From IMG/VR virus record IMGVR_UViG_3300035561_000139, positions 1 through 31,732 of that record: a DNA stretch of 31,732 bases; one strand, written 5' to 3'. Origin of the DNA: a virus (Duplodnaviria; Caudoviricetes). Shown in pieces: positions 951 to 27,809 of the stretch. The position numbers were made by a program, and so were the translations under genes. Positions within the stretch are counted from its first letter, which is position 1; each line of letters opens with the position of its first letter. The notes under the pieces were generated by a model. It had not been told where the DNA came from and did no database searches. It was given only the letters and a program-made list of their open reading frames with translations.

Positions 951-3611
951 ATGCGACGTGAGGTCAGGCGAGGGCGACGGTTCGTTGAATACCAAGAGGA
1001 TGATGGTCGACTCACCCAAGAGATTTGCGCAGGTGATGTCAATTATCTCGATGATAATGGCACTTGGCAACCGATAAACTTAGACTGGGAAGACGATAGC
1101 GGTGGCTTCGCCTTCCGTGCCTCTCGCCCCAATCACAAGTTGCGTTTTGATAGCATCGGGGCGTGGCGTTGGTATCCCCGCAGAAATGTAGAAACTGAAT
1201 ATATCGTCATCGGGAGACCGCAATGCTGGTTGGAAGCCACCAAGCGTTGGGGTAATCTGCTGGCTAACGGGATAAGCAGAGATGGCAATGAGATAACGAT
1301 AACCTCTGTGCGCAACGTGACCCGCAAGCTACGTGTGCTTTGGAACGGGTTCAAGACCGATTATATTCTGGAGAATGCTAATGCACCTAAGCGGTATCGC
1401 TATCCTGTCGAGCTGGTTGGCGTTACAGAACAGGACGGATTGCTTTATGGTGCTGACGGTGAAATCGTTGGCATCCTGACACCTACAAGTGCCCAAGATG
1501 CGGACGGCAAGGATTTGGCTTGCACATCCTCTTATGCTAATGGCTATGTCGAGTTCGAAGTAGATCCTGATGGCGCTGCTTATCCTGTTAACATTGACCC
1601 AGATTTTGTGGGCGATACGGCGGATGGATATGTTATGGGCTTTAATAACACGAGTTATTCTGATGCTCGTAATACTTCAATAGCGTTAAATAATACAAAC
1701 ACATTGCTGTCTATTGGTCAATATTATACATATCAATATTTCGTAGGCCGGTCATATCTAAAATTTGACACATCTTCGCTTCCCGATAATGCCATAGTAA
1801 CAAGCACAAAATTAAAATTAACAGTTAACACGAACTATTCTGATACTGACTTTGATATCATCATTAAGAAACAGAATTGGAGTAGTCAAGACCCGTTATC
1901 AGATAGTAATCGAGAAGCTGCCTATGACAATTGTTTGACCGCTACCGATGATGATAACATCTGGAGAAATACCAACGGGATTAGTACCAATACTCCCTAT
2001 GAGAGTGGAGAACTTAATAAAAGTTGGATAAATAAAACAGGTAATACTTATTACAGTCTTTTATCATCGAGAGATAAAAGTGCAACCACTCCAACTGGAA
2101 ATGAATACATTTATATTTATTCTGCCGAATATAGCACGGCCTCTTACCGTCGCCCAACGTTGGTGGTTACGTATAAGACACCAGATGAACTTACTGGCAG
2201 GGATGTAATTGCTGGCAGCTCGATAGAGAAGCCGACGCTTGGGCAAAAACACACGCTTACTGGTGGAAACGTTAGCAGCATACCTTCGGCAGAGAAACCC
2301 GCCTTAGCACAAACGCACTTATTAACGGGCGGCAATGTCAGCGCAATTCCGTCAGCAGAGAAACCGACAATTGGTCAAATGCACACCCTTACTGGTAGCG
2401 ATATTATTGCCGTGCCTATTGCGGAGAAGCCCGACTTAGGTCAAGAGCATCCGCTTATTGGTAATGATGTTATCGCATCGAGTTCAATCGAAAAACCTAC
2501 AATCGGTCAGGAACACACCTTCACAGGCGAGGATGTAATTAGCATCCCGTTAGCTGATAAACCTAATTTGGCTCAAGAGCATAGGTTATCTGGTGGGGAT
2601 GTTAGTTCAGTCTCATTAGCAGAAAAACCTGACTTAGGTCAAACGCACATTCTTAATAGCGGTGATGTTATTGCCGTCCCAATTGCTGAAAAACCGATTT
2701 TAGGGCAGACACACCAATTACTGGGTGGGGATGTTATAGCCGTTCCGATTGCGGAAAAGCCGACAATAGTTTCTGGACAGATATATGATTTAGAAGGGCA
2801 AGATGTTATTAGCATCCCATCAGCTGGCACTCCCGATATTGGGCAGGAGCATCAGCTATCAGGCTCGGATGTTATTGCTATCCCAATTGCTGAAAAGCCT
2901 ATACTTGGTCAAACACATCAGCTTACTTCGCAAGATGTGGTTGCAATTCCAATAGCGGAAAAGCCATTACTTGCCATATTATATATATTTGATGGTCGAG
3001 ATGTTATAGCCATCCCAATTATAGAGAAGCCTACACTCGGACAATCACATTCATTAACTGGTGGCAATGTCAGTTCAGTCCCAGAAGCGGATAAGCCTGA
3101 CTTAGGTCAAACTCATATCCTTACATCTCAAGATGTCGTCAGCATCCCAGAAGCGGATAAACCTGACTTAGGTCAAACTCATATTATTACCAGCGGCGAT
3201 GTCACTGCTATTCCGATTGCTGAAGAACCTGTACTCGGTCAGGAACACGAATTATCAGGCTCAGATGTCATTGCCATTCCTATCGCCGAAAAGCCGATGC
3301 TTGGGCAGGTTCATAATTTGCTCGGCAAGGATGTTGTAGCTCAATCCTTTGTGGAAAAGCCCAGCATTGGGCAGATACACAATCTCGTTGCACTGCCAGT
3401 TGTGGCAGGATCAAGCATTGAAATGGCATCGCTTGGGCAGCTGCACCAGTTAATTGCTCTGGATGTGGTTACAATCAGTTATGCGGGCATGCCTGATATA
3501 CACCTCATTTTCGCTATCCCATTGGTAAGGATTTACAAGGTGCCGTTCAAAGATACTGCCTATCTTGTGCCTCATGATGATACAATTTACAAAGTGCCAT
3601 TGGATAAATGA
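951..3611 (+). CDS. 886-aa fibre-like protein: N-terminal globular domains (incl. DNRLRE/CBM-like) plus ~20 x 22-aa repeats
   Basis: AAGGAG RBS. YPVNIDP motif, then GRSYLKFDTSSLP...RRPTLVVTY (DNRLRE-like), then HxLxGxDVxxxPxAEKPxLGQx repeats. Confidence 0.7.
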   Translation: MRREVRRGRRFVEYQEDDGRLTQEICAGDVNYLDDNGTWQPINLDWEDDSGGFAFRASRPNHKLRFDSIGAWRWYPRRNVETEYIVIGRPQCWLEATKRWGNLLANGISRDGNEITITSVRNVTRKLRVLWNGFKTDYILENANAPKRYRYPVELVGVTEQDGLLYGADGEIVGILTPTSAQDADGKDLACTSSYANGYVEFEVDPDGAAYPVNIDPDFVGDTADGYVMGFNNTSYSDARNTSIALNNTNTLLSIGQYYTYQYFVGRSYLKFDTSSLPDNAIVTSTKLKLTVNTNYSDTDFDIIIKKQNWSSQDPLSDSNREAAYDNCLTATDDDNIWRNTNGISTNTPYESGELNKSWINKTGNTYYSLLSSRDKSATTPTGNEYIYIYSAEYSTASYRRPTLVVTYKTPDELTGRDVIAGSSIEKPTLGQKHTLTGGNVSSIPSAEKPALAQTHLLTGGNVSAIPSAEKPTIGQMHTLTGSDIIAVPIAEKPDLGQEHPLIGNDVIASSSIEKPTIGQEHTFTGEDVISIPLADKPNLAQEHRLSGGDVSSVSLAEKPDLGQTHILNSGDVIAVPIAEKPILGQTHQLLGGDVIAVPIAEKPTIVSGQIYDLEGQDVISIPSAGTPDIGQEHQLSGSDVIAIPIAEKPILGQTHQLTSQDVVAIPIAEKPLLAILYIFDGRDVIAIPIIEKPTLGQSHSLTGGNVSSVPEADKPDLGQTHILTSQDVVSIPEADKPDLGQTHIITSGDVTAIPIAEEPVLGQEHELSGSDVIAIPIAEKPMLGQVHNLLGKDVVAQSFVEKPSIGQIHNLVALPVVAGSSIEMASLGQLHQLIALDVVTISYAGMPDIHLIFAIPLVRIYKVPFKDTAYLVPHDDTIYKVPLDK
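2184..3510 (+). repeat. ~20 degenerate 66-bp (22-aa) coding tandem repeats
   Basis: Counted from the translation, e.g. HTLTGGNVSSIPSAEKPALAQT and HILTSQDVVSIPEADKPDLGQT. Confidence 0.92.
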
Positions 3612-11761: not shown

Positions 11762-12112
11762 ATGACCGAACATGACGAGCAAGCCACATTGTTTAGCTGG
11801 ACGCGCTATCGCCCAGAGCTACGCTGGATGTTCGCCATCCCCAACGGCGGGTTGCGCAATAAGGTCACCGCTGCCCGCCTTCGGAGCGAGGGTACTAAAG
11901 CTGGCGTGTGGGACATATTTTTACCGATACCTTCCAAAGGCTATCACGGGATGTTCTTAGAGATGAAATTTAATAAGAACCGACTTACAGAAAGCCAAAA
12001 AGAGTTCGGCGAATTTGTTAACGGCAAGGGTTACTATACGGCAGTGGCGTACAGTGCTGATGAGGCGATGCGAGAGATTGATCAATACTTGGATGCGAAC
12101 GATGCTGATTAA
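11762..12112 (+). CDS. VRR-NUC domain nuclease
   Basis: MTEHDEQ, FAIPNGG, G.KAGVWD, LEMK...LTESQ. Confidence 0.88.
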   Translation: MTEHDEQATLFSWTRYRPELRWMFAIPNGGLRNKVTAARLRSEGTKAGVWDIFLPIPSKGYHGMFLEMKFNKNRLTESQKEFGEFVNGKGYYTAVAYSADEAMREIDQYLDANDAD

Positions 12113-13064
12113 TGCCAATGCTCTATCTATCCCGTTAGCCGATAAATGCGTGCAGCTGGTGGTTACCAGCCCGCCCTATTATGGGCAAAGAGATTACAAA
12201 ACTGACGGTCAGCTCGGTCTTGAGCCTACCCCAGAGCAGTATGTGGAGAACTTGGTGCAAGTGTTCCGTGAACTTTGGCGGGTGCTGAAAGATGACGGCA
12301 TCGCATACCTTAATCTTGGAGATAGTTATGCTGGGTCGGGTTGCGGAACGAATGATTATCGCACAGAGAAAAGCAGAAGCATAAATAAAAGCGATGTTAT
12401 GTTCAGCAAAGCGCCACCCCAGCAGAAGTTGAAACAGTATGGTTATAAGCCAAAAGACCTACTGATGATACCAGCAATAGTTGCCTTTGCCTTGCGCAAT
12501 GACGGCTGGTATCTGCGGGACGACATCATCTGGGCGAAAGGCTATAGTGGCAATATGCGGGGCGGGAGCGTGATGCCAGAGAGCGTGAAAGACCGCTGCA
12601 CCAAAGCCTATGAGCATATCTTTATGCTGACTAAAAGTCCGAAGTATTATTATGACTATAACGCAGTGCTGGAGCCAATCAAACCCGAATCAATTGAGCG
12701 TTCTAATTATGGATGGGATTGTGACCGACCTTCGACTAAAAATGCCAATACAAACGGAAATGGTATTCACGTAAGTAAAATGGGAAATAGATTTGCAAAT
12801 CCTAATGGCGGAAATCCCCGCAATGTATGGCTGATAAACCCAAAGCCGTTCAAGGGCGCTCACTATGCCGTATTCCCGCCCGAGCTGGTGCGGTTACCGA
12901 TATTGGCTGGCAGCCGAGCTGGGGATATTGTTTTAGACCCATTCTGCGGCTCAGGAACGACATTAATGGTAGCCAAAGAACTGGGCAGAGAAGCTATTGG
13001 GCTGGACTTATCGTTCACCTACCTGCACGATATTGCCGAGCCGAGATTGGGAGTGTTATGTTAG
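12102..13064 (+). CDS. DNA methyltransferase 1 (beta class, SPPY, probably N4-cytosine)
   Basis: VTSPPY; HYAVFP; DPFCGSGTT. Confidence 0.92.
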   Translation: MLINANALSIPLADKCVQLVVTSPPYYGQRDYKTDGQLGLEPTPEQYVENLVQVFRELWRVLKDDGIAYLNLGDSYAGSGCGTNDYRTEKSRSINKSDVMFSKAPPQQKLKQYGYKPKDLLMIPAIVAFALRNDGWYLRDDIIWAKGYSGNMRGGSVMPESVKDRCTKAYEHIFMLTKSPKYYYDYNAVLEPIKPESIERSNYGWDCDRPSTKNANTNGNGIHVSKMGNRFANPNGGNPRNVWLINPKPFKGAHYAVFPPELVRLPILAGSRAGDIVLDPFCGSGTTLMVAKELGREAIGLDLSFTYLHDIAEPRLGVLC

Positions 13065-13276
13065 AAAACGGCAAGCCGATCTATTGCGAAATTGACACCG
13101 AAACAAAGCGGATGTGGTGGGTCATGCCTGACTTTGAGACCGTTCGCCTGTTCATTGCAACGGGCAAGGGCTGGCTGGAAATCCCGGAAGAGGAGTGGAA
13201 GGTTGCTGACATTGAGCGAGCTTCAATTCTGCCTGATATTGCCAGAGAGGAATGTAAGAGTGATAAATCTGATTAA
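13058..13276 (+). CDS. Hypothetical protein, 72 aa
   Basis: GGGAG RBS, ATG 13058; overlaps both neighbours by a few bases. Confidence 0.65.
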   Translation: MLENGKPIYCEIDTETKRMWWVMPDFETVRLFIATGKGWLEIPEEEWKVADIERASILPDIAREECKSDKSD

Positions 13277-15491
13277 CGCCGACTGTTTCGAAGCGCTGAA
13301 AGACCTGCCAGAGAACAGCATTGACACTTGCATAACCGACCCGCCTTATGCTTTAGGCTTTATGGGCAAAGAATGGGACTCGTTCGGCTCTGATGCTGGC
13401 AAGTTCCAAGAATGGAGTAGGCAATGGGCGCAAGAAGTCTATCGGGTGCTCAAGCCCGGCGGGTTGCTGCTCTCTTTCGGGGGCACTCGCACTTATCATC
13501 GAATGGCTTGTGGGATTGAGGATGCCGAGTTTGAAATTCGGGACTGCTTCATGTGGGTGTATGGCTGCTTGTCAGAAGATACAGAAATCCTGACAATAAA
13601 CGGCTGGATGCGATACAATAAAAACATAAAAGATTATCCCGTATTGTGTTATAATGTTGTAGATGACACATTCGGATTTTATAAACCAACAGAAGTCTAC
13701 TGTTATGAAAACAAACATACCGCTTACAGAATACAATCAGGTTTTACAGACCAAATCGTCTCCCGAAACCATCGTTGCCTTGTTGAACGAAGCGGAAGAA
13801 AAGTATTCGCTTACGCCGAGACACTTCAATGCGAAGAGAACATACCCGTTTTGGAAAGTCTGCAAGACCTGCCAGAAACCATTTATGACAATGAATCACA
13901 CTCAAGCATTGAGAAATCGTTATTGCAGTTATTGTGCGAAGCGCCAACCCAAAAAGAGAAAGCCACCACAGGAAAGGATGATGACCCTAATAACTTGCCC
14001 AACCTGTGGGAAAGAATTTTACATCCATTCCTGTTGGGAAAACAAAAGTGCAAATCATTATTGTTCTCGAAGCTGTGCGGGAAAAGCAAAGGCAGAGCAC
14101 ATGAGACAAATAGCCCATCTTGGAAAATTGGGGTGGACAGAACAGGGCAAGCGCAAACGCAGAGAGGGGATGCTCGGCGAAAAGAATCCCGCTTGGAAAG
14201 GCGGAGTAACTTACTTCAAAAAGCATGGGAATTATGTTGGCGTAAAGTATGTGCGATGTCCGCAAGAATATTTGGATATGGCTCGCAAGGATGGCTATGT
14301 TATGGAACATCGCCTGATAATGGCGGAAAATCTGGGGCGTCCGCTATTGAGGACGGAAGTAGTGCATCATATAAATCACGACCCATCAGACAATCGTCTG
14401 GAAAATCTGATACTTTTCGAGAACAATCAAGCCCACAAGTTATACGAATCACAAGAGCAAAAGTAACCCCATTTGAATATGATGGCAAGATGTGGTGTGT
14501 TACCGTGCCGACTGGGGCATTTGTAGCTCGGCGCAATGGAAAAATATTTATCACAGGCAATTCTGGCTTTCCTAAATCCTATAATATCAGCAAGGGGATA
14601 GAAGGAAAGTTAAGGACAGGCTCAGCGAACTGGAATGAGTGGAAAGGTCTTGGTGGCGAACCTTACAAAAGTAAGACTGGCTATGTTAAGTTGCAAGCTG
14701 AACAGAAGTATCGAGGCGATTATTCTGATAAGCCAGCGAGTGATGTAGACATTACCACGACTGAAGCCCAACTTTGGGATGGCTGGGGAACTCAATTGAA
14801 ACCCGCCTATGAACCCGTCGTCATCGCCCAGAAGCCCGTCGACCAGAACTATGTCAACAATGCCCTGACATGGGGCGTGGCGGGCTATTGGATTGACGGG
14901 GGGAGGATAAAAACCTCAGAAATAGTTGGTGCCCGTAGGCGTTCAGAAAATGAATCTGGTAAGACAAATATGTTAGGCGTGAATAAACAAATAAAATTTG
15001 GAGGCGCACCGACACAAGGGCGTTACCCAAGTAACTTTGCCCACGATGGTTCGGATGAGGTGATGGCGCTGTTTCCTGAAACGGGCAAATCAACTGGCGG
15101 TAGGATTGGCAATAAAGGTTCTATGCTGAATATGACAGGCACAAACTACGAGGCTGGAGATGCTGGTTATGGCGATGACGGTTCCGCCGCCCGCTTCTTT
15201 TACTGTGCTAAGGCGAGCCGAAGCGAAAGAAATGCAGGGCTGGAAGAAAGCAATCCTCACCCCACCGTGAAGCCCCTTGCCCTTATGCGTTATCTGGTAC
15301 GCCTGACCAAGACGCCCACAGGCGGGGTGGTGCTCGACCCGTTTATGGGCAGCGGAACGACTGGATGTGCCTGCGTGCTGGAAGGCAGAGATTTTATCGG
15401 GATTGAGAAAGAGGCAGAGTATTATGAGATTTCCCAGAAGCGGATTGAACATTACCGGTTGCCATTGGATAAAGCTCAAGCCGAAAAATAG
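13260..15491 (+). CDS. DNA methyltransferase 2 (beta class, DPPY), intein-containing; 743-aa precursor, 411 aa spliced
   Basis: GAGG RBS and GTG 13260; ITDPPY; WVYG|intein|SGFPKS; HPTVKP; DPFMGSGTT. Confidence 0.92.
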   Translation: MINLINADCFEALKDLPENSIDTCITDPPYALGFMGKEWDSFGSDAGKFQEWSRQWAQEVYRVLKPGGLLLSFGGTRTYHRMACGIEDAEFEIRDCFMWVYGCLSEDTEILTINGWMRYNKNIKDYPVLCYNVVDDTFGFYKPTEVYCYENKHTAYRIQSGFTDQIVSRNHRCLVERSGRKVFAYAETLQCEENIPVLESLQDLPETIYDNESHSSIEKSLLQLLCEAPTQKEKATTGKDDDPNNLPNLWERILHPFLLGKQKCKSLLFSKLCGKSKGRAHETNSPSWKIGVDRTGQAQTQRGDARRKESRLERRSNLLQKAWELCWRKVCAMSARIFGYGSQGWLCYGTSPDNGGKSGASAIEDGSSASYKSRPIRQSSGKSDTFREQSSPQVIRITRAKVTPFEYDGKMWCVTVPTGAFVARRNGKIFITGNSGFPKSYNISKGIEGKLRTGSANWNEWKGLGGEPYKSKTGYVKLQAEQKYRGDYSDKPASDVDITTTEAQLWDGWGTQLKPAYEPVVIAQKPVDQNYVNNALTWGVAGYWIDGGRIKTSEIVGARRRSENESGKTNMLGVNKQIKFGGAPTQGRYPSNFAHDGSDEVMALFPETGKSTGGRIGNKGSMLNMTGTNYEAGDAGYGDDGSAARFFYCAKASRSERNAGLEESNPHPTVKPLALMRYLVRLTKTPTGGVVLDPFMGSGTTGCACVLEGRDFIGIEKEAEYYEISQKRIEHYRLPLDKAQAEK
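13645..13655 (+). promoter_or_regulatory. Extended -10 promoter inside the intein, 7 nt before the HNH ATG
   Basis: TGTGTTATAAT matches TGTGnTATAAT at 6211, 6388 and 9407. Confidence 0.65.
13663..14466 (+). CDS. HNH homing endonuclease nested in the +1 frame of the intein
   Basis: Two CxxC...CS..C Zn modules, GEKNPAWKGG, GYVMEHRLIMAENLGRPL...VVHHINHDPSDNRLENL. Confidence 0.9.
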   Translation: MTHSDFINQQKSTVMKTNIPLTEYNQVLQTKSSPETIVALLNEAEEKYSLTPRHFNAKRTYPFWKVCKTCQKPFMTMNHTQALRNRYCSYCAKRQPKKRKPPQERMMTLITCPTCGKEFYIHSCWENKSANHYCSRSCAGKAKAEHMRQIAHLGKLGWTEQGKRKRREGMLGEKNPAWKGGVTYFKKHGNYVGVKYVRCPQEYLDMARKDGYVMEHRLIMAENLGRPLLRTEVVHHINHDPSDNRLENLILFENNQAHKLYESQEQK

Positions 15492-15505
15492 TGTATAATG
15501 GCATT

Positions 15506-16759
15506 ATGGCTGATAAGATAACTTGGAATAATGAGAAGCGAAAATTAAGCGAGCTAATCCCTTGGCCGCGCAACCCACGCCAGATCAACCGAGAGCAGGC
15601 GAAAAGGCTGGGCGAGTCATTCGAGCAGTTTGGGCAGGTCGAGACGATCGCCATTGGGCCGGATAATGAGGTCTACAACGGACACCAGCGGATCAATGTT
15701 TTAGCTGATAAATTCGGTGGCGATTACGAGGTTGAGGTGCGGGTTGCCTCCCGTGCCCTTACTGAGAAAGAGCGCGAGAAGTTGACCGTGTTTCTGCATA
15801 AGGGCGCGGCTGGCGAATGGGATTTTGACGTGTTGGCAAACGAGTTTGAGCTTGACGACCTGCTGGACTGGGGCTTTGACGAGAAGGATTTAGACCTTGA
15901 CCTCTGGGCGCCTGAGCCAGTTGAGGATGTTGAGCCGCAGATTGACAAGGCTGAGGAGCTGCGCGAGAAGTGGGGCGTGGAGCTGGGGCAGCTATGGCAG
16001 CTCGGCTCGCACCGCTTGATTTGCGGGGACTGCACGGATAAGGCGGTTGTGGAACGGGTGATGGGGGGAGAGAATATAAAAACAATATTTACTTCACCAC
16101 CTTATAATATGGCTGGCAATATGTATAAATATTATAGTGATGACCTGAAATCCAATGAATATATCAAATTCAATATAAATGTTGTCAATAATCTTATCCC
16201 TTTTCTGCGCGGATTTCTTTTCTGGAACATTAGCTATAATAAAAACGCAAGATGGGAATTTATGGAGATAATGTATAAATTCATAGAGGAATGCCATTTG
16301 CGGTTTTTAGAATTAATAATTTGGGATAAATGCCATGGTATACCAATAACCTCAGATGATATGCTAACCAGAACTTATGAGGATATTTTACTTGCTTCTG
16401 ATGAAGAAACTTATCAAGACATTGATTTCATAGAACTTCTCGGAACAGAAAAACGAGCGGGTTTTATTAAATCTAAGCAAAAAGGAATTACTAATTATTG
16501 GAAAATTAATCCGAGTAAAATACAAATGGATTCACATTCAGCGATATTCCCAATAGAATTGCCTGAACGAGCAATAAAATTAACAACTAACTCACTCGAA
16601 ATTGTAATGGATCCATTTCTCGGCTCAGGCACCACCCTTATCGCTTGTGAGCGATTAGGGCGCAAATGTCGGGCGGTCGAGCTCTCGCCTGCCTATTGCG
16701 CAGTGGCAATTCAACGCTGGGTGGATGTAACCGGCGGAACGCCTGAGCTGATTGGCTAA
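15506..16759 (+). CDS. ParB-like N-domain plus DNA methyltransferase 3
   Basis: LIPWPRNPR...NGHQR; HRLICGD; FTSPPY; HSAIFP; DPFLGSGTT. Typical pre-terminase position. Confidence 0.9.
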   Translation: MADKITWNNEKRKLSELIPWPRNPRQINREQAKRLGESFEQFGQVETIAIGPDNEVYNGHQRINVLADKFGGDYEVEVRVASRALTEKEREKLTVFLHKGAAGEWDFDVLANEFELDDLLDWGFDEKDLDLDLWAPEPVEDVEPQIDKAEELREKWGVELGQLWQLGSHRLICGDCTDKAVVERVMGGENIKTIFTSPPYNMAGNMYKYYSDDLKSNEYIKFNINVVNNLIPFLRGFLFWNISYNKNARWEFMEIMYKFIEECHLRFLELIIWDKCHGIPITSDDMLTRTYEDILLASDEETYQDIDFIELLGTEKRAGFIKSKQKGITNYWKINPSKIQMDSHSAIFPIELPERAIKLTTNSLEIVMDPFLGSGTTLIACERLGRKCRAVELSPAYCAVAIQRWVDVTGGTPELIG

Positions 16760-26093: not shown

Positions 26094-26281
26094 TAGACTA
26101 TCGGTCTTGGAAGCGAGGATTCGGGGATAACCCACCTCTATGGGCTGTTATTTTAGAACTCAGTGCTGATTATGGCATAGCTCCATGGGAATTTGAGGAG
26201 AAGGTTACCCCAGAATGGTTGCACAGAATGCTGCTCAGGCGAGAAGAAACTATAAGGCAGATGGAAAAAGCTAATGGCTGA
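26066..26281 (+). CDS. -1 frameshift extension of the tail chaperone (GT-like)
   Basis: A_AAC_CCT at 26066-26072; the -1 frame is open to TGA 26279-26281 (...YGIAPWEFEE...); stem 26076-26127 lies downstream. Confidence 0.75.
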   Translation, partial: KPYISESELIDYRSWKRGFGDNPPLWAVILELSADYGIAPWEFEEKVTPEWLHRMLLRREETIRQMEKANG

Positions 26282-27809
26282 AAAGAATGTTCTCGAAATC
26301 CTGATAACAGCCAAAGATGAAGCCAGCGGCAAGCTTGGCGGTCTTTTTGACGCACTTGGTGGCATTGGAAAAGGCGCTGGCATTGCTGTGGGTGCGTTAG
26401 GCGCTGCTGGGGGCGCAGTCGTCAAGATTGCAGGTGATTTGGCTATGTCGGCTGCACCTGCCGAACAAGTCCAGAAAACGTTTGAAAACTTAGCCTCTTC
26501 AATTGGCGAAGAGGCAGTTCCGATGCTTGAGGAGCTTAGAGGCGCTACCAGAGGAATGGTGGCTGATACCGACCTGATGCAAGCCTCTAACAAGTTTATG
26601 AGCATGGGCTTGGCAGAAAGCTCTGAAGAGGCAGCTGCATTAGCCGAGATGGCAACCCAGTTAGGCTCGGCAATGGGGCAGGATGCCACTACCTCAATGA
26701 GCGACTTTGCCCTGATGCTCGCTAACCAGTCCATCCCCCGCCTTGACAACTTTGGTATCTCCAGCGGTAAGGTGCGTGAACGCATCGAAGAGCTAATGGC
26801 AGCTGACGAGAATATGACCCGTGAGCAAGCCTTTATGACCGCCACGATGGAAGAGGGTGCGATAGCTATGTCCAGAGTTGGTGAGCAATCAGGCACGACT
26901 GCTTCCACGATGGCTACGATGCAAGCTACATTAGAGAATCTCAAGACTTCAATTGGCACGGCGCTGCTACCGATACTTGCCTCTCTTGCACAAGCCCTTA
27001 CCCCGCTACTTGAGGAACTCGGACCACCCTTGATTGAGGTTGCCACACAAGTTGGCGAAGTGATCACATCCGATGTAATACCTGCACTGGTGCCTATTGT
27101 TGAGGCATTGATCCCGCCCTTGCTGGCAATGCTACCCTCTTTAGTATCCCTGTTCTCGGTTTTAGCAGGCAGCTTGATGTCAGCTTTAGCCCCGATCCTG
27201 AATACACTGGTTATGATCATAACCCAGCTGCTCGGGCAATTGACACCCCTAATTGAAGCCCTGATGCCCCCGCTGATCGAATTACTGGGTGCGGTGCTTG
27301 GATTGGTGAATGCGCTGCTGCCGATTTTCGTTCAGATATTGTCAACGGCGATCATCCCGCTGGTTGAGGCGCTATTGCCCCCACTGATTACGCTGTTAGA
27401 AAAAGTTGTGACAGTTGTTGCCGATGTAGCAAGCTGGCTGAGTACAAAGCTGCAGCCCGCATTTGACGGGATTAGTAATGCAATTAGTGGCGTTGTTGGC
27501 TGGATTGGCAGGATGGTTGATAAGCTCACAAGTATAAAATTGCCAAGTTGGCTAACACCCGGAAGCCCTACTCCATTTGAGCTTGGGTTGCGTGGAATTG
27601 CAGATGCACTGCAGGACGTTAATGCTGATATTGGCGGACTGACTGTGAATGCCTCTCGACCCGTTTTGGCTGGTGCTGGTGGTGCAGGCATGGGCAGCAT
27701 TGTGGTGAACATTAACTCGCCCGTGAATCTGGCTGATAAGTTATGGGTTGAGCAAACCCTTGCCCCATATGTCCGCGATGAAATTCGAAGAGTAGCAGTT
27801 AGAGGTTAA
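26274..27809 (+). CDS. Tape measure protein, 511 aa
   Basis: ILITAKDEAS start, helical amphipathic Leu/Pro repeats, GSP motif near the C-terminus. Confidence 0.9.
   Translation: MAEKNVLEILITAKDEASGKLGGLFDALGGIGKGAGIAVGALGAAGGAVVKIAGDLAMSAAPAEQVQKTFENLASSIGEEAVPMLEELRGATRGMVADTDLMQASNKFMSMGLAESSEEAAALAEMATQLGSAMGQDATTSMSDFALMLANQSIPRLDNFGISSGKVRERIEELMAADENMTREQAFMTATMEEGAIAMSRVGEQSGTTASTMATMQATLENLKTSIGTALLPILASLAQALTPLLEELGPPLIEVATQVGEVITSDVIPALVPIVEALIPPLLAMLPSLVSLFSVLAGSLMSALAPILNTLVMIITQLLGQLTPLIEALMPPLIELLGAVLGLVNALLPIFVQILSTAIIPLVEALLPPLITLLEKVVTVVADVASWLSTKLQPAFDGISNAISGVVGWIGRMVDKLTSIKLPSWLTPGSPTPFELGLRGIADALQDVNADIGGLTVNASRPVLAGAGGAGMGSIVVNINSPVNLADKLWVEQTLAPYVRDEIRRVAVRG

Follow-up and report, generated by a model that had tools for sequence, protein, structure and literature searches.

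Inteins can carry a nuclease gene outside their own reading frame. Such elements have been described with EndoVII-like nucleases in actinophages, and also with antisense LAGLIDADG and antisense VSR-like nucleases (Gosselin 2025). A cyanobacterial dnaX intein has an out-of-frame LAGLIDADG endonuclease, and earlier proposals of this kind go back to 1998 (Phillips 2026, bioRxiv 10.64898/2026.09.14.751524). Here we examine an insert of 332 codons in a DNA methyltransferase gene of the virus record IMGVR_UViG_3300035561_000139 (Duplodnaviria; Caudoviricetes), positions 1 to 31,732 of which were analysed (the window). We conclude, with a probability of roughly 0.82, that the insert is a mobile intein in a phage N6/N4 methylase, and that the endonuclease for its homing is encoded by an HNH gene of its own, written over the intein in the +1 frame.

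How does this locus compare with the systems already known? Like the inteins of Gosselin (2025), it is a contiguous intein with a nuclease gene in another frame of the same strand and an open, unstructured filler frame. The nuclease kinds of that paper (EndoVII-like, antisense LAGLIDADG, antisense VSR-like) differ from the sense HNH_3 in +1 found here; the HNH_3/zinc-ribbon nuclease, the methylase host and an overlap with block B that is selected in both frames set the window apart. The dnaX intein of Phillips, DeSimone and Gogarten shares with it an out-of-frame endonuclease, a frame-dependent ratio of nonsynonymous to synonymous substitution rates (dN/dS) and putative Shine-Dalgarno (SD) motifs; as in the window's family, mini-inteins and empty alleles coexist.

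Closer to the host gene, inteins in DNA methyltransferases were described by Kelley (2016, PMC5050341), and the intein in the ShiLan gp65 methylase is reported as LAGLIDADG-type (PMC9957025; Gosselin 2023). The ShiLan gp65 intein occupies the same site of the same methylase family (WLYG/C...GN/SGFPKS, the slashes marking the junctions) and has homologous splicing blocks, whereas its LAGLIDADG is in frame and it has no +1 HNH inside the intein. A hidden HNH, the ShiLan domain, has been described in mycobacteriophage methylases (Arsenault 2025, PMC11855218); the initial annotation was right to mention out-of-frame HNH inserts in actinophage methylases. The ShiLan-domain HNH is homologous to that of the window (33% over residues 111-253, E 1e-10) and shares its host family and an open host frame, but it lies in the third frame, farther downstream after GTALKP, and has no intein. 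The intein-less sister insertions described below are nearer the window in sequence and are in +1.

The general layout, an intein with an out-of-frame endonuclease, is already published. In the literature searched, which covered few subscription journals and left the supplements of two preprints outside, we found no +1-HNH intein and no intein-internal promoter, nor did we find dual selection over a splicing core, an embedded promoter with alternative starts, or same-site intein-less sisters.

Two reading frames in one insert

The methylase frame reads through the insert (13566-14561) without a stop, as CLSEDTEILT...SRNH...WCVTVPTGAFVARRNGKIFITGN followed by Ser, while the +2 frame has 25 stops over the same stretch. 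The +1 open reading frame (ORF) overlaps block B and ends before blocks F/G, so that both frames are stop-free over 804 nt. The open insert and the +1 ORF, seen in the initial annotation, stand on re-examination. The features are arranged as follows.

13260..15491, plus strand: N6/N4 DNA methyltransferase precursor, 743 amino acids from GTG 13260; PF01555 (N6_N4_Mtase) at E 9.6e-38; phrog_67
13566..14561, plus strand: likely class-1-type intein, 332 amino acids; Cys1 ... Gly-Asn, Ser+1; site WxYG/SGFPK
13566..13859, plus strand: N-terminal splicing region, codons 1-98; retained in all 6 mini-inteins
13663..14466, plus strand: +1 gene for a predicted HNH endonuclease with two zinc ribbons, 267 amino acids plus stop; TAG directly upstream
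13663..13857, plus strand: N-terminal ~65 residues of the +1 protein, likely overprinted on the splicing domain; modelled as two helices and one strand
13761..13772, plus strand: block B, S-R-N-H (TxxH equivalent); overlapped by the +1 gene; near-invariant in 120 protein-search homologues
13860..14466, plus strand: intein-frame filler; open, amino acids unconstrained; deleted in frame in 6 mini-inteins
13861..14076, plus strand: two Cys4 zinc ribbons, C67/70/88/91 and C112/115/134/138; all eight Cys invariant in 119 aligned proteins
14185..14433, plus strand: NPAWKGG motif and HNH core (EHR 215-217, HH 235-236, N244, N248); H258 after
14467..14564, plus strand: C-terminal splicing blocks F/G (WCV...ITGN) plus the +1 Ser; dN/dS 0.08 in the intein frame

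The methylase likely starts at GTG 13260; the ORF itself is open from 13092. Splicing would proceed by the class 1 route, through Cys1, the block-B His, the terminal Asn and Ser+1, with a predicted methylase product of 411 amino acids.

Is the insert an intein? Among 1,324 relatives from a protein search, the 120 that rank highest span the whole insert (query aside, at 43-62% identity), and every one has Cys1 and GN/S at the two junctions. The N-terminal splicing region matches the ShiLan intein by profile with a probability of 99.3, blocks F/G are 79% identical to those of ShiLan gp65 over 29 residues, and a profile built from six mini-inteins matches the solved inteins 6zgq (E 2e-7), 9hth and 7cfv. 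The penultimate residue is Gly, as it is in a phage RDF intein that has been shown to splice (PMC5050341). Assignment to class 3 (WCT triplet, no Cys1) was considered and rejected: Cys F4 and Thr G5 are present, but so is Cys1, and B12 is Cys, Val or Ile. Since B12 is not Trp, the intein belongs to class 1, in keeping with its in-frame insertion at a site with empty alleles, its Cys1, block-B His, Asn and Ser+1, and its homology to Hint domains. It is not a canonical full intein, which would have the endonuclease in the frame of the splicing domain. Nor need a group I or II intron be invoked, because the host frame is open and intein blocks are present; an Rfam search of six loci gave no match at E<=1.

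Two results weigh against this assignment. The window's intein alone matches no intein in Pfam, NCBIfam, PHROG or the PDB, and the best single-sequence intein matches of its relatives fall under the curated cut-offs (PF14890, E 4e-4; TIGR01445, E 9e-4). A single-sequence AlphaFold model of the intein was uninformative, with a predicted local distance difference test score (pLDDT) of 38. Motifs and homology together nevertheless make a self-splicing intein likely.

The +1 protein matches HNH_3 (PF13392, residues 216-257, E 3e-8) and HNH families of PHROG; HH is invariant in the 119 aligned proteins, and EHR and VHH/AHH are each found in 85/88. Of the proposed searches of both frames, the one for HNH_3 succeeded in +1 and that for a Hint family in the intein frame did not; Pfam gave the intein frame no family at all. 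The label zinc-ribbon/NUMOD-like/HNH holds for HNH_3 and for the eight invariant Cys, whereas no library match named 'NUMOD-like'. An AlphaFold2 model has a mean pLDDT of 91.6 for residues 15-267. The overprinted N-terminal segment scores 93-98, a value that covariation forced by the intein frame could inflate.

In a wide structure search the top match of the +1 protein was I-HmuI (1u3e; Z 6.3, root-mean-square deviation 3.3, 74 residues), and intron-encoded HNHs ranked top in a viral fold search with the nuclease core. The likeness to I-HmuI-type HNHs is one of the core fold; the window's protein adds zinc ribbons and the overprinted segment before the core. Two points count against reading too much into it: a Z of 6.3 falls in the range that the structure tool rates common, and Foldseek found nothing for the +1 protein in the PDB at E<=0.001. 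I-HmuI is an intron-encoded enzyme that nicks DNA, and from the modelled fold it is plausible that the core described here nicks DNA as well. For the N-terminal part the wide structure search gave weak POTRA-like rows only (Z <=3.7), which argue for neither a known nor a new fold, and an ESM Atlas search with the N-terminal 75 residues gave scores all <=0.80.

Selection and start signals

A search for related loci with the single intein found none, and one with the HNH found a single locus; degenerate patterns were therefore used. A DNA pattern based on block B and taking no account of the +1 frame found 48 viral, at least 120 metagenome (an estimated ~200) and 5 genome loci. The 174 loci, window included, comprise 111 whole inteins, 51 cut at the 3' end, 7 without a recognised 5' end and 5 without a 3' end despite enough DNA (L012, L117 and L173, which are interrupted, and L073 and L076). 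The whole inteins reduce to 97 distinct sequences: both frames are open in 89, six are mini-inteins, L111 has a stop in the intein frame and L116 is frameshifted. Both frames are thus open in 89/91 distinct full-length members of a family found without reference to +1; 87 of the 89 fit the HNH pattern and two have variant motifs. Two further members, outside the count of 97, translate TGA as Gly; with table 25 both of their frames are open. The phages of L054, L058 and L171 use this code; in L054 and L058 TGA codons occur in both overlapping frames, neither of which is open without table 25.

The mini-inteins (L013, L079, L099, L107, L132 and L137; 148-199 amino acids) arose by in-frame deletion of the HNH and retain only the intein ends. 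In most of them +1 is still open over block B (4 stops against 16.5 expected), which suggests recent loss of the HNH. At L001 (4133-5360) the methylase ORF stops early. Between its end and the C-terminal part of the methylase lies a 214-residue ORF with Cys/His motifs, which may be another nuclease insertion.

Could two open frames be a product of chance, or of an assembly error that shifted an in-frame HNH out of frame? One relative gives the idea some substance: in L116 a shift of 1 nt disrupts the methylase and leaves the end of the HNH in the intein frame, which marks a dead allele or an assembly error. It is the sole member with HNH motifs in the intein frame; the 89 intact members and L111 have them in +1. 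An error of this kind would break one frame, yet both are open. Contigs from two sequencing runs, the source sample possibly among them, cover 12500-14906 without gaps and with 4 differing letters, and shorter contig pieces from two runs of a second study are likewise gap-free across the insert region. The indels that were named as grounds for rejecting the overprinting were thus looked for and are absent. When the HNH protein was held fixed and its codons resampled, the intein frame was open in 0/20,000 trials (mean 18.6 stops); with the intein fixed, +1 was open in 0.7%. We regard chance or error as refuted by the family phase, the stop counts and the contigs, and its remaining probability as negligible.

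The preferred reading, two overlapping genes, predicts that selection changes frame along the insert. Stops were counted in 63 members that share less than 75% identity, L093 being excluded, and dN/dS was computed from 26 disjoint pairs. The +1 frame has 147 stops against 118 expected before the ORF, none against 122 over codons 47-97 (around block B) and one against 267 in the middle; across blocks F/G (the final 20 codons) the count equals expectation (43 and 43), and in the C-extein it is close to it (487 against 495). The HNH core has a dN/dS of 0.17 in +1 against 2.29 in the intein frame, and blocks F/G have 0.08 in the intein frame against 2.34 in +1, the very pattern that had been predicted. 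In the HNH core the substitution rate follows the +1 class only; by intein-frame class it is 0.089 against 0.102 per site, and the intein frame there is therefore true filler. The middle is selected in +1 only and the 3' end in the intein frame only.

Codons 47-97 behave differently. Substitutions that are silent in the intein but change the +1 protein have a rate of 0.21 per site; in the intein regions on either side it is 0.36 and 0.51. Through third positions that are otherwise free, 66-76/78 members preserve Leu, Asn and Glu of the +1 protein. About 50 codons of the splicing domain, block B included, are selected in both frames. The description of the intein frame as tolerated filler is accordingly correct from about codon 98 and fails for codons 47-97. 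A purely nucleotide-level constraint over block B was considered and ruled out: changes silent in both frames are frequent there (0.76 per site, from 30 sites only), and CGA and AGA alternate freely. A motif of the overprinted segment is absent from 28/28 intein-less relatives and, among the annotated-phage matches listed, from all except one record that carries the same intein. The N-terminal ~65 residues of the +1 protein therefore likely arose by overprinting.

The +1 gene also needs a start. The candidate signals lie inside intein codons.

13647..13655, plus strand: predicted extended -10 element TG-T-TATAAT, within intein codons C-Y-N; in the family, biased choice of synonyms and an enriched -35
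13663, plus strand: ATG, candidate leaderless start, 7 nt after TATAAT
13705..13707, plus strand: second in-frame ATG, the family's commonest start position; weak SD in the window (SD energy -1.0)

Intein codons 29-30 read TATAAT or TATGAT in 53/78 members, with biased choice of synonyms: TAT in 52/63 against a background of 61% (p 2e-4) and AAT in 22/24 (p 8e-4). A -35 with at least 5/6 matches is found in 14/63, against 6.9 expected, a count reached in 0/2000 resamplings. A candidate start is present in all 78 representatives and falls into one of three classes: an ATG 7 nt past the hexamer (19/78, the window among them), an ATG or GTG 14 codons later, or an ATG inside TATGAT. The position of 13705 has ATG in 49/95 and GTG in 9/95 members. 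These positions compensate for one another. An upstream in-frame ATG is kept in 29/29 members without the near ATG but in 23/49 of those with one (Fisher p 2e-7), and the median SD energy of the near start is -6.3 where it is the sole candidate (n=32) against -0.5 where the +7 ATG exists (n=7; p 0.001).

We propose that a sigma70-type promoter within intein codons ~21-30 gives a short transcript that feeds alternative starts of the +1 gene. A spacing of 7 nt from the -10 hexamer to the ATG suits leaderless starts, and in the window the message is likely leaderless from ATG 13663; relatives would use an SD-led start 14 codons later or the ATG in TATGAT. The position of these start signals upstream of block B would account for the ~65 additional residues by which the +1 protein extends over the splicing domain. 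Several observations speak against the proposal. The window's own -35 is poor (3/6 matches), and a simple promoter scan of the window gave 3 sites against 2.4 in shuffles, the TATAAT site not among them. A +7 ATG is not significantly linked to an open frame (p 0.06-0.09), and for starts of the TATGAT class the SD signal is weak (p 0.03 and 0.16). The p-values overstate independence, as family members are related.

The HNH could instead be made by a programmed +1 frameshift, as a fusion of extein, intein N-terminal part and HNH. In all intact members +1 is open from intein codon 45 or earlier, and the start position differs between subfamilies, both of which fit a frameshift. It would leave unexplained why an ATG in frame is never lacking, one position making up for another, why SD strength follows which start must serve, and why promoter-like synonymous bias lies just upstream. 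We consider a frameshift very unlikely, and favour independent initiation of the HNH gene.

Target site, transfer and host context

If the HNH is a homing endonuclease, empty sites and transfers between alleles should be found. The empty WxYG/SGFP junction is present in 175/197 loci examined, 123 of these having been chosen by that junction. Viral stretches hold an estimated ~4,800 empty sites against 48 with the intein motif, a ratio of about a hundredfold that is rough because the two patterns differ. The inteins of L029 and L085 are 99.2% identical, their flanks 52-72% (background 47-69%), and the high identity begins and ends exactly at the intein borders. L067 and the mini-intein L013, in different exteins, show the same pattern, with inteins 98.5% identical. 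Near-identical inteins in unrelated exteins are a signature of homing in these relatives, as the initial annotation had supposed in tying mobility to a separate nuclease. For the window itself there is no such pair: the best relative of its intein is 69% identical in nucleotides, and no near-identical copy was found in another extein. The sequences point to recent homing in relatives only, not of the window's own copy. One-sided co-conversion is not claimed; several pairs share more upstream flank, but the downstream side is hypervariable and its conserved block is missing in 4/13 pairs.

From its predicted fold, the I-HmuI-like core with its zinc ribbons would nick or cut the empty allele at or near WxYG/SGFPK. 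The whole intein would then be copied into that allele; the sequence comparisons above indicate movement between unrelated methylase alleles.

The window has genes for terminase, portal, capsid, tape measure and lysin, as expected of a tailed phage. Ahead of the terminase, at 12015-16759, stand three consecutive N6/N4 methylase genes, the insert being in the middle one; the third has an additional N-terminal region of ~190 residues. From 14906 to 15950 contigs with the identical intein diverge in the variable C-terminal part of the methylase and in the next gene, and runs X5 and X6 have an additional methylase with an empty junction at 14561. Elsewhere in the window, an 886-residue ORF (951-3611) matches no Pfam family and matches PHROG over 13 residues only, and an antisense ORF of 355 residues (26153-27220, minus strand), opposite a tape-measure-like gene, has no Pfam or PHROG match.

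Intein-less relatives and origin

A search with a pattern drawn from the HNH core, which ignored the intein, gave 119 loci, of which 80 with flanks collapse to 70. Forty lie in inteins. Another 29 are inserted, also in +1, into methylases of this family; they lack a splicing domain, and the host frame is open through them. In the remaining one the host frame is closed. Almost all of the 29 insertions are found directly after GFPKS. One, L405, lies at the intein site itself and has the methylase W-x-x-G rebuilt at the 3' end of the insert. Many have CxC and CxxC pairs in the host frame at both loop ends, like a closing zinc clasp (15/25 by pattern, at least two of them doubtful; for example L379, L383, L384, L396, L397, L450 and L451). 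A close HNH relative (52% identity) stands free directly behind the stop codon of a methylase gene on a Curtobacterium plasmid (L497, CP018784).

These insertions speak for a different view of the window, in which splicing is unneeded and the methylase tolerates the insert as a read-through loop. The methylase family is, moreover, reported to tolerate the ShiLan loop (PMC11855218). Such a loop would not require the strong constraint on blocks F/G, the invariance of Cys1 and GN/S in the 120 homologues, or mini-inteins that retain exactly the splicing parts, and we give the loop view slightly less credence than the frameshift.

The G/S junction is altered in 16/25 intein-less carriers with the junction in view against 3/40 HNH-less controls, the latter picked by likeness to the window's extein (p 2e-6). 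Among the altered forms are YST, YGQ and YAS. Changed junctions would be expected if the nuclease targets the intein site. They are also what self-protection would produce if the HNH were kept mainly as a weapon against co-infecting phages with an empty methylase allele, homing being a by-product, and the empty target is very common among phages. Homing, though, fully explains transfers bordered exactly at the intein ends, and a weapon first and foremost is a role to which we attach as little probability as to frameshifting. Homing thus remains our reading of what the HNH is for.

Where did the intein-borne HNH come from? An intein-less read-through insert is a candidate precursor. In a careful HNH tree four changes between intein and loop are needed and a single clade appears in 0/200 bootstraps; for a quick LG+G4 tree without three outlying rows, one clade is compatible with the approximately unbiased (AU) test (p 0.57). 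The HNH may have passed between the two forms once or repeatedly, in either direction. For introns, a 'collaborative homing' model has been proposed (PMC2988022), and the intein-less insertions fit it. A protein version of it is a tentative scenario, to which we give somewhat less than even odds: a dual-coding HNH cassette, a read-through loop beside the site and already targeting it, may have entered a mini-intein, then built promoter and start signals into intein codons and grown a folded domain of ~65 residues on the Hint core. If an HNH loop moved into a mini-intein, it would have brought a filler frame that was open from the outset.

The out-of-frame intein nucleases published so far are few, and those papers leave their expression and origin open. 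The family described here is large and escapes annotation, having no Hint match and a hidden HNH; many inteins annotated as 'degenerate' may hold such out-of-frame genes. The dual selection on some 50 codons of a catalytic domain is a natural case of overprinting. A single site shows every state: empty, filled by an intein with LAGLIDADG or HNH, filled by a mini-intein, or holding an HNH loop without an intein. Whether mobile inteins arise from a nuclease already adapted to their site is therefore directly testable. If the scenario is true, the family would record the assembly of a mobile intein, and one stretch of DNA would encode two functional folds.

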